In this document: one piece after another, positions 18,001-21,000 of the stretch | Layout of the letters: each line of letters opens with the position of its first letter | Numbering within the stretch: the stretch's first letter is position 1 | NCBI GenBank assembly: GCA_043816965.1 | Contig: JBDRHK010000019.1 | Coordinates: 1 to 32,054 of the forward strand | Length of the DNA: 32,054 bases | Source of the DNA: Candidatus Iainarchaeum sp. | GTDB lineage: Archaea > Iainarchaeota > Iainarchaeia > Iainarchaeales > JAFCCJ01 | Direction of reading: 5' to 3' | Position numbers: made by a program

Positions 18001-21000
18001 TGACAAGAATGACCTCGTCCTTGTGGAGGAATTCACTGTCCTTGCCCTTCACAACCTTCATCACGTTATCGTTCTTTTTTGCCTCATCAAGCATTATCTT
18101 TCTTGCCTTATCAATATTAGAGTCATAACTTATCCCGATATTCAATGTGCCAAGGATTTTTGGGTCCTTTATGGAGTAATTTGTGATATATTCTTCGCTA
18201 ATTTTTGAATTCGGGATTATTATCCTTTTGTTGTCCCAGGTGTTTATCACAGTATGGCGAAGGGTGATGTCCTCCACCTCACCATAGTCGTCCTTTATCG
18301 TGAGCTTGTCCCCGACGCGAAAGGGCTGGGAAACGGCAATGGAAACCCCCGCAATCACATTTGAAAGGGTCTGCTGTGCTGCGAGGCCGACAACGACGGC
18401 AAGGATTCCTGCAGATGCGAGGAGCGACACTCCCAAACCTGAAAAGCCCGGAATCAGGCTCCCTGCAATTATTATCCCTGCAAGGTAAATGCCAACCAAT
18501 GCCAGCCTTCTAAGAATAACAAACTGGGTTTCATCAATCTTAAGGGCCCTGGAGGTTTTCCTGAAATACCTCAGCAGGAGGAAATCAATGAGGTGGGCAA
18601 TTACTGCAGAGCCTATTATTATCAATGTAATCTGCACAACAAGAACAAGGTCAGCCCCAAAAATCATTCCAAATAACTCAAACACCATCCAAATCAGACC
18701 AATATAGGGGTAAAATATTATTAAGGTGAACTGTTGCGCTGTTGGAATCACTTGTGATGGGGCTTAAAAGGCTTCTTCCGGGGTTCCCTCTTCTTTTTGT
18801 CGCTGGCTCCGAAAGGGAAGTACTTTAGTTTGTCCATTAAATTACCGGAAATGGCGATAGCTTTTTAAACACTTGCGCGCCAATTACTTAATCCCACAAT
18901 TTTCCCACCGTGGGTTATGATGTGATGTACATGAGAGTTGAGTTAGTTCACATTGGTTCCGAAAAATTCCGGGTTTAATTTTATTAGAGATGGGATTAGT
19001 AAAATTGCAAAAACTGGTTCTGAAATAATAAATCTACGGGCAGAGGATATTCCCTTTATTCTTGAAAGGCTCCCTGATAACGGAAAAAGGTTTGTTGGAA
19101 TTACTGGCGAGGATTTGTGGCAGAATTATGCCCTAGGAAATTCCGCCACTGATTTGGAAGTAAAACGCAAATTGGAATGGGCTGATGAACGCGCGCTGTT
19201 TCTGAAACCAACACTTTGTTTGCTTGGTAAGAAAGGTGCCAAAATCAAAACAGGGAAGGAAATTTCTGTCGCGATTAATGCGAAATATTCCCTTCTCGCA
19301 GGAAAATTCCTTTCCAAATATGAAGACAGGGGGGTAAAATTCAACAAAATAGTGATTAATGGCTCTGTTGAAACCACCTTTGCGATAGGCCTGGCTGACA
19401 TGGTAATTGATATCGTATACTCTGGAAAAACTTTCAGGGAACAGAATCTGGCGATATTGGAAAATATCTTCTCAAGCAACATAGTTGTGTTGGGAAAGAA
19501 AGGCGGTAAAAATGAAAATCTTTAAATTAAACAAAATGGGCAAAAAGGACCGTGAATTTATTCTCAACCGTTCAAAGGAATCTATTGGCGGCATCAAGGG
19601 CTATGTAAAAGAAATTATTGACGATGTAAGGAAACGAGGAGATAAGGCGGTTATTGAATACACCAAAAAATTTGATAAGGTGGAGTTAGAAAGGGGAGAA
19701 CTTAAAGTTAGTGAGAAAGAGTTTAAGGCTGCTTTTGAGAGAATTTCACCAAAACTTTTGAAAGCCATAAAAGAGCAGATAAGATTAAGTAAAAAATTCC
19801 AATTTATGCAGCTTGGAGATAAATTCTGGATGAAAGAGATTTTTCCAGGGCTTACTCTGGGGCAGAAAACAACAGCAATTGAATCAGTCGGACTTTATGT
19901 TCCGGGAGGAACTGCGGCATATCCTACGGTAATGCAGATTTTGGCGGTTCCTGCTAAGATTGCAGGGGTGAAAAAGATTGTTGCAGTTACCCCTCCAAGA
20001 GAGAATTTGGATGCATTACTTGTGGCGGCCAAATTGAGCGGGGTTGATGAGGTTTACAGAATCGGGGGGATTCAGGCAATCGCCGCACTTGCATATGGAA
20101 CTGAAACAATCCCAAAAGTGAACAAAATTGTCGGTCCTGGGAATGTTTATGTTACTGCGGCAAAGGAACTGGTTTTTGGAGAGGTTGCAATCGATATGCC
20201 TGCAGGACCTAGCGAAGCACTTATACTTGCGGATGATTCCGCAAACCCAAAATATGTTGCGGCAGATATTCTAGCGCGGGCCGAGCACGATGAAAATGCC
20301 GCAGGGGTTCTTGTGACAGATTCCAGGGAGCTGGCAGAAAAGGTAATTGAAGAAGTTGAAAGGCAGAAAGGATTGCTGGAAAGAAGCGAGATTATTGAAA
20401 AAAGTTTGGCAAAATACTCGGCAATAATTCTGGCAGGTTCGATTGAGAAGGCAATTGATTTCGCAAATGAATATGCCCCAGAGCACTTGGAGATAATAAC
20501 AAAGGATCCGTGGAAAACCATGGAAAAAATAGAAAATGCGGGAAGCATATTTCTCGGTGAGAACGCACCAGTGGCGATAGGGGATTATGCCTCAGGAGTT
20601 AACCACGTTTTGCCCACTTTGGGAAATGCAAAGATGTTTTCTGCGATTGGTGTTGAGAGCTTCCAGAAAAAAACTGAATTTGAGTTTATTTCAAAGGATG
20701 CATTGAGGAAACTGGAAAAAATTTCCACGCCGATTGCGGAATATGAGGGATTTGACGGGCACAAGAAATCAATCCAAATAAGACTCGATAAAACTATGGG
20801 GGAAAAGAAATGAATCTTGGAATAGAGGTGAAAAAATCAACCAATAAGGAAGTTGAAATTGAAAGGAAAACTCAGGAGAGTGAGGTTAGGGTAGTCATCG
20901 GCAAAGATTCAGAGATAGATACTTCTCTAAATTTCCTCAACCACATGATTGAGACCATTTCCTTCCGTTCAGGAATTCCCATAGGGATCTCTTTCAAAGG

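Follow-up and report, generated by a model that had tools for sequence, protein, structure and literature searches.

Histidine codons at a +1 frameshift site before hisG in DPANN archaea: a probable sensor of charged tRNA-His

The hisG gene of a Candidatus Iainarchaeum genome has no ATG in its own reading frame and overlaps a short leader open reading frame (ORF) at a slip-prone codon that is followed by a histidine codon. The same arrangement is present in many related archaea. A +1 frameshift at this site is very probably real, and it is likely that the frameshift is programmed and acts as a sensor that responds to charged tRNA-His. The stretch of DNA analyzed, termed here the window, is 32,054 nt in length (contig JBDRHK010000019.1). 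The genome is 1.34 Mb, 86% complete, and belongs to the same order as Ca. Iainarchaeum andersonii. Features are on the + strand unless otherwise stated.

The hisG frame in the window is closed by an in-frame TAG (positions 18944–18946) directly before the shift site. It then has four codons, none of them ATG, before the Pro codon of the PKNSG motif at 18959, as an earlier note on this DNA described, and it ends with a stop codon at 19523–19525. The leader ORF (18925–18978) is in the -1 frame and has 17 codons and a stop for unshifted ribosomes at 18976–18978; comparable leaders with an ATG and a Shine-Dalgarno (SD) sequence are found in most relatives. The shift site (18946–18951) consists of GTT (Val) in the P site (18946–18948) and CAC (His) in the A site (18949–18951), and a tRNA-Val(GAC) gene is present in the genome. 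When one base is skipped at the His codon, translation of the window sequence gives an open product of 199 aa, and the proposal that a +1 slip would lead from the leader into hisG is borne out at the level of sequence. The chance frequency of the motif in this genome is 6.8e-4 per nt, or about 0.003 for the four open positions, a post hoc figure.

The leader may start at ATG 18925–18927, as first proposed, or at a second in-frame ATG at 18931. The leader itself stands, but the second ATG has the better SD (-6.4 vs -5.2 kcal/mol). This SD, GTGAT at 18922–18926, ends 4 nt before ATG 18931 and is the best among the local starts. At positions 18917–18925 there are two hisG-frame ATGs and then a TGA that overlaps ATG 18925; this two-codon ORF might pass ribosomes on to the leader. 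Another His site within the window (18902–18911 or 18926–18931) was considered and rejected, being without an ATG path or SD support.

The ORF at 18950–19525 is HisG by sequence profile and by predicted fold. It matches Pfam PF01634 above the cut-off (E 7e-20), and its TIGR00070 score of 70.1 bits is slightly below the cut-off of 75.75. The predicted structure has a pLDDT of 90.7, and the top Foldseek matches are all ATP phosphoribosyltransferases (E 3e-14, TM 0.67–0.75). It is the short form of the enzyme, a catalytic core with no His residue and no C-terminal regulatory domain. Structures were modeled for the hisG-frame part and for a natural in-frame relative (P0011), in place of the fused product. 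Strand beta-1 in the P0011 model is residues 26–33, eight residues that end at the Pro, which places the frame junction in the middle of the strand. The gene caller's start, an in-frame TTG at 18953–18955, would keep 3 of the 8 beta-1 positions, and the model of the in-frame relative thus supports the earlier view that this start drops the first strand. The TTG has a weak SD (-2.2 kcal/mol); it is a possible leaky start that would cost most of beta-1.

An internal SD-like element (18935–18942) ends 3 nt before the P-site codon and scores 5 at this spacing. The anti-SD sequence was taken from relatives of the class (the 16S tail is present in 118 of 215 class genomes), as the 16S tail is unassembled in the window genome. 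The element matches at 6 of 7 positions in the register seen in relatives, with a duplex of -5.0 kcal/mol, and is less weak than the earlier note describes. Among sites in relatives, a spacing of 3 nt to the P-site codon is best in 76 of 110 and 5–6 nt in 19; the median duplex is -5.3 kcal/mol vs -1.5 kcal/mol in controls. The element is in a different codon phase at some sites, which points to a nucleotide signal. The spacing has the number proposed by analogy with RF2, 3 nt, but not clearly the RF2 geometry. GTGAT followed by 3 nt is the modal initiation spacing in the window genome (18 GTGAT cases among 640 starts), and a compressed SD, closer than at initiation, was not found; the spacing is relaxed and is that of ordinary initiation. 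Unlike in RF2, the element may therefore act more by holding or pausing the ribosome than by pushing it.

A comparative set was rebuilt, to which two collection scans contributed the best 80 of 232 and the best 80 of 214 matches. A total of 197 loci were fetched and 28 were left out (20 distant or of another HisG class, 4 with the motif off the contig, 4 with too little upstream sequence or with N). The 169 scored loci form 122 clusters at 90% identity, and proportions are similar with stricter collapse (97 clusters at 70%, 60 at 60%). Woesearchaeota, Pacearchaeota, Nanoarchaeota, Aenigmatarchaeota and Iainarchaeum are among the record titles, and a few records carry non-DPANN labels. In 88 clusters an in-frame ATG is lacking and an ATG leads to the His site, and in 9 there are both an in-frame ATG and a shift path. 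The remainder are 6 with a site and no ATG within 35 codons, 16 with an in-frame ATG only, and 3 with an ATG and an orphan site. A longer search distance shows L015, L191, L137 and L064 to be multi-site loci; L038 and L158 show no upstream ATG in the DNA examined, and L154 has a spurious site only, with no start found. In 16 scored hisG loci of other classes the motif is present in none, and 15 have a near ATG.

When loci were classed solely by the missing in-frame ATG, a His codon was present in the -1 frame of the open stretch in all 94 no-ATG clusters (one of them spurious) vs 26 expected from gene bodies; these relatives are kin and not independent, so the counts are not P-values. The rebuilt set thus agrees with the His codon reported earlier across relatives. 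The other frame has a His codon in 22 clusters vs 13 expected. Asp (68 vs 18 expected) and Cys (69 vs 41) are also raised in the -1 frame, from codons that underlie the SD-like element or directly follow it, and Ser is raised in the third frame (94 vs 50) because TCA consists of the same bases. P-site codons in the 94 clusters are ATT (42), CTT (32), GTT (11), GCC (6) and TTT, CTC and CCC (1 each), and the A-site His codon is CAT in 88 and CAC in 6. The overlapping hisG-frame codon is TTC in 86, CCC in 7, TCC in 1 and TTT in none, yet TTC makes up just 30% of the Phe codons in the same hisG ORFs. Re-pairing of the P-site tRNA by +1 would be N-TT onto TTC in 86 clusters, G/C-CC onto CCC in 7 and CTC onto TCC in 1. 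The first position is often mismatched (GTT, ATT, GCC), and this counts against slippage. A -2 slip in place of +1 was dropped on inspection of the sequences, as there is no consistent re-pairing two bases back. The architecture, its conservation, the homology at the junction and the constraint at the codon level can all be read from sequence.

The main question is whether recoding is needed at all. HisG could be started at an in-frame GTG or TTG or at a near-cognate ATN codon, with the -1-frame His codon a by-product of the Phe-Ile codons of beta-1. Some in-frame GTG or TTG is found at least 4 codons up in 63 of the 94 no-ATG clusters, the window has TTG 18953, and database gene calls mostly use such starts. 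However, 23 of these clusters have no ATG, GTG or TTG anywhere in the open frame, and 31 have none that keeps four codons. A stop lies between the GTG position and hisG in several clusters, including the window, and the SD of the leader ATG is the stronger one in 48 of the 52 loci that have both kinds of start. A by-product of Phe codons does not account for the use of TTC without a single TTT at the overlapping codon, and Pro or Ser takes the place of Phe while His stays. Four in-frame relatives (L012, L048, L068 and L129) encode the N-terminal peptide that their shifted neighbors would make by +1. The motif also recurs outside hisG, as described below. An account without recoding is thus largely refuted as a general explanation, and we regard it as very unlikely. 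A minor leaky start is possible, and the claim that HisG is made only by frameshifting is not upheld, given the TTG in the window, the GTG/TTG codons in 63 of 94 clusters and the 9 of 122 clusters with both an ATG and a shift path. In-frame relatives are scattered on a quick tree with many weak deep forks and hand-assigned type labels, where 19 rows require 12 changes and the starred branches force at least 4.

The SD-like, slippery and His codon motif is found 174 times in the 600 nt upstream of hisG vs 26 times downstream and 30 times on the reverse strand (67,927 vs 72,739 nt). Codons that follow an SD-like element and N(TT/CC) are His in 136 of 290 cases upstream, vs CAT in 8 of 269 downstream. 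As the motif recurs upstream and outside of hisG, constraints on the HisG protein cannot explain it. The architecture has several variants: a single site as in the window, double sites, triple sites, and sites in an upstream ORF (uORF). Series of two His sites in relatives, claimed earlier, are borne out: 14 clusters are labeled as having a leaderless ATG followed by two sites in consecutive frames, including Ca. Iainarchaeum andersonii, where the serial His codons are at about 14983 and 15047 of AQRS01000036.1. Three sites are present in L035, L045, L137, L192 and L195. The window shares the 5' repeat with the double-site group and lacks the ATG of that group, and may have lost a first tier.

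At uORF sites the +1 frame continues, in many cases across a tRNA-His gene, as far as the next ATG, where it stops. Such a site, with its +1 frame stop at -9 to +10 nt of the hisG ATG, is found in 12 of 19 ATG-started clusters (one weak). A gating site is absent in the other 7 of 19, so that the control is dispensable in some lineages. A tRNA-His gene is present within 450 nt upstream of hisG in about half of the 122 clusters (59 ARAGORN matches), and none is upstream of hisG in the window. The tRNA-His(GTG) gene is on the hisG strand just upstream in, e.g., L011, L056, L108 and L109, and the +1 frame is open through several of these genes, so that translation and excision of the tRNA may compete.

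Two further explanations concern the DNA and RNA rather than the ribosome. The shift-site bases in the window come from a single assembly without independent read coverage, as contigs from three DNA runs do not cover the site, and a pseudogene or assembly error could produce a broken frame of this kind. The same architecture is kept in about 100 distinct clusters from many assemblies, with intact hisG bodies and operons; this conservation argues against an error in the window and refutes the explanation, whose probability we consider negligible. Frame correction in the RNA by polymerase slippage or editing has a precedent: a 2016 review (PMC5009743) describes an ant endosymbiont in which slippage during transcription brings a frameshifted his gene back into frame. 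The precedent depends on long poly(A) runs, but no homopolymer is present here, and the SD-like element and the codon phase are ribosome-level signals. Correction at the RNA level is highly improbable.

The proposed mechanism is as follows. Ribosomes would start at the leader ATG and reach the site with a P-site codon that can re-pair (N-TT or G-CC) and the His codon in the A site, while the SD-like element pairs to the 16S tail. Where His-tRNA arrives fast, they would continue in the leader frame and terminate about 10 codons further on, and no HisG would be made. Where His-tRNA is scarce, the P-site tRNA with G34 would slip one base onto TTC (or CCC), with positions 2 and 3 still paired, and translation would yield full-length HisG, one half of beta-1 from the leader and the other half from the new frame. 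In relatives ribosomes would pass two or three stacked sites, or a uORF site whose +1 frame runs through the tRNA-His gene and ends on the next start, giving translational coupling. We infer slippage in vivo, its rate, its dependence on histidine, and coupling to downstream genes.

The A-site amino acid at the sites is only His, the product of the pathway itself. Limitation of His is the best explanation for what triggers the frameshift, and in this respect the histidine-starvation trigger of the earlier note is retained; strictly, the species sensed would be charged tRNA-His and not free histidine. HisG itself is nearly free of His, with 0 of 191 residues in the window and 6 of 18,094 in shift loci, compared to 15 of 3,420 where hisG starts at an ATG and 55 of 2,880 in HisG of other classes. 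The genome-wide content is 1.46%, and hisH, hisF and hisA/I/E together have 3 His in 849 residues. A possible alternative is that the frameshift is real but constitutive, the wobble-read CAU being slow and the shift merely keeping HisG low at a set ratio. The excess of CAT over CAC at the sites (88 vs 6) fits constitutive slow decoding. Any slow codon would serve a set ratio, however, and only His is used; the serial sites, the His-free HisG and the linkage to tRNA-His (the 59 matches in 122 clusters) and to histidyl-tRNA synthetase (HisRS) point to a His signal. A constitutive ratio is unlikely, and a charged-tRNA-His sensor is the preferred reading.

Similar sites were sought for other pathways in the window genome. 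The first, strict scan yielded 12 unconvincing rows and did not recover hisG itself. In the second, over 1,224 coding-like ORFs, there were 7 rows on 4 ORFs, and the cognate codon was present only in hisG. One candidate on C35, a CysRS gene, was rejected since it has an ordinary ATG slightly past the 40-codon limit.

A sensor of charged tRNA-His may take the place of feedback inhibition. No HisZ above the TIGR00443 cut-off was found in the window genome (86% complete) or in five relatives (89–94%), and each of the six has one full-length HisRS-like gene by this profile. HisG without a regulatory domain, together with no HisZ found in six genomes, suggests that feedback inhibition may be missing. 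An HisRS-like gene is in or beside the his operon in 61 of 122 clusters; HisRS might act as a partner of HisG or be co-regulated with it. Short HisG without HisZ and with a single HisRS gene is noted for the window genome (G000:C81:3785-5029) and for G021, G089, G093 and G149.

Comparison with known systems shows partial likeness. As in RF2 (prfB), there is a short zero-frame ORF, CUU is a common P-site codon, slow decoding in the A site would be the sensor, and the functional product is in the +1 frame. The internal SD-like element is 3 nt before the P-site codon, as in the +1 shifts described in the 2016 review (PMC5009743). The A site here holds a sense His codon, CAT or CAC, in hisG, whereas in RF2 it is UGA in prfB. 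Charged tRNA-His is what would be sensed, the host is archaeal, the P-site codon varies (ATT, CTT, GTT, GCC), sites occur in series, and the SD base-pairs with AUCAC in the 16S tail at the spacing usual for initiation. In operation the hisG site would thus resemble the RF2 sensor, but its A-site codon and SD geometry set it apart from the RF2 type. Ornithine decarboxylase antizyme is also a +1 frameshift that, following a short ORF1, both senses a metabolite and acts as the effector; antizyme, however, is eukaryotic, has a stop codon in the A site, is stimulated by polyamines and is an inhibitor, while the product here is a biosynthetic enzyme.

P-site slippage at a slowly decoded sense codon is shared with yeast Ty1, ABP140 and EST3 (CUU-AGG/AGU) and with the "hungry codon" of Gallant, but those need a constitutively rare tRNA or artificial starvation. 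The 2016 review records no natural starvation-specific trans-frame product as known, and the archaeal frameshift cases given there are viral or the -1 shift of magnesium chelatase (PMC5009743). Attenuation (hisL, pheL) also uses a leader ORF with codons for the pathway product that reports the level of aminoacyl-tRNA. Here there is one His codon per site without a His run, and the output is a reading frame, not transcription. A scan tuned to bacterial terminators gave no terminator-like sites in 18700–19600, and the leader folds no better than shuffled sequences (z -0.35). The hisG leader is not a transcription attenuator. The case of pheL shows that a conserved and efficient leader frameshift can be incidental and without effect on pheA (PMC3082878); the difference is that here the enzyme itself depends on the new frame. 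No prior report of a His-codon frameshift that gates hisG was found in a literature search whose scope was mainly papers outside subscription, and a natural use of hungry-codon frameshifting for amino-acid sensing would be previously undescribed.

The site may further define a new class of control by amino acids, on a par with attenuation, T-boxes and GCN4-type uORFs, and we lean toward this view. The class would be a hungry-codon frameshift switch whose trans-frame product is the first enzyme of the pathway. Two or three such steps in series could sharpen the response, translational coupling would let the switch operate through a tRNA-His gene, and it would replace allosteric feedback in DPANN archaea without HisZ; it would also be a chromosomal archaeal +1 frameshift with an SD-like stimulator. 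If so, hungry-codon frameshifting, long studied as an error, has a natural use, in a compact protein-free amino-acid sensor that is conserved across DPANN archaea and provides an amino-acid-responsive part of about 15 nt. The hisG genes of these genomes would then be mis-started by gene callers. The natural single, double, triple and reverted versions make the proposal directly testable in a reporter.

The region 5' to the leader may carry a second, transcriptional layer of control. A TATA-like box at 18862–18869 is the putative promoter of the his operon, a role that we presume from the general anatomy of archaeal promoters; 13 relatives with the same 5' motif have an AT-rich box of the TTTA(T/A)AA type about 22–23 nt before the leader ATG. 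A CCCAC-N6-CCCAC direct repeat with an 11-bp period (18893–18908) is at the presumed transcription start. The repeat is kept in 14 of 122 clusters and is invariant at synonymous positions; it is a candidate operator or other 5' element. In relatives it comes after a leaderless ATG, and in the window this ATG is replaced. An AbrB/MraZ-ACT protein, identified by Pfam, is encoded on the - strand at 23969–24361, at the far end of the operon in the window. Of the 13 other clusters with the repeat, which are non-independent kin, 12 have a homologue immediately upstream of hisG (e.g., L022 3442–3858), and the 108 clusters without the repeat give one weak match. The protein is a candidate amino-acid-sensing transcription regulator of the operon, and with the repeat it forms a candidate repressor and operator pair.

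The his operon has the order hisG-D-B-H-F-(A/I/E) at 18950–23985, with hisG first. By profile, the genes after hisG (19512–23985) are hisD, hisB, hisH, hisF and a hisA-I-E fusion, with overlapping stops and starts. Neither hisC nor a histidinol phosphatase gene was found among the six ORFs of the window operon (19512–23985). In L022 (3977–6274) and about ten related loci HisG is fused to a class I/II aminotransferase (HisC-like) and an HAD hydrolase (phosphatase-like) in a protein of about 750 aa, and HisG-HisE fusions are present in other relatives. A different, long-form HisG with an ordinary ATG is found in members of the same order (L006 and L007, from G027 and G020, and G001), so that the class contains two types of HisG under different control. 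A Fic-domain gene is located a few kb upstream of the his operon both in the window (16059–16991) and in I. andersonii (L022 2247–3218).
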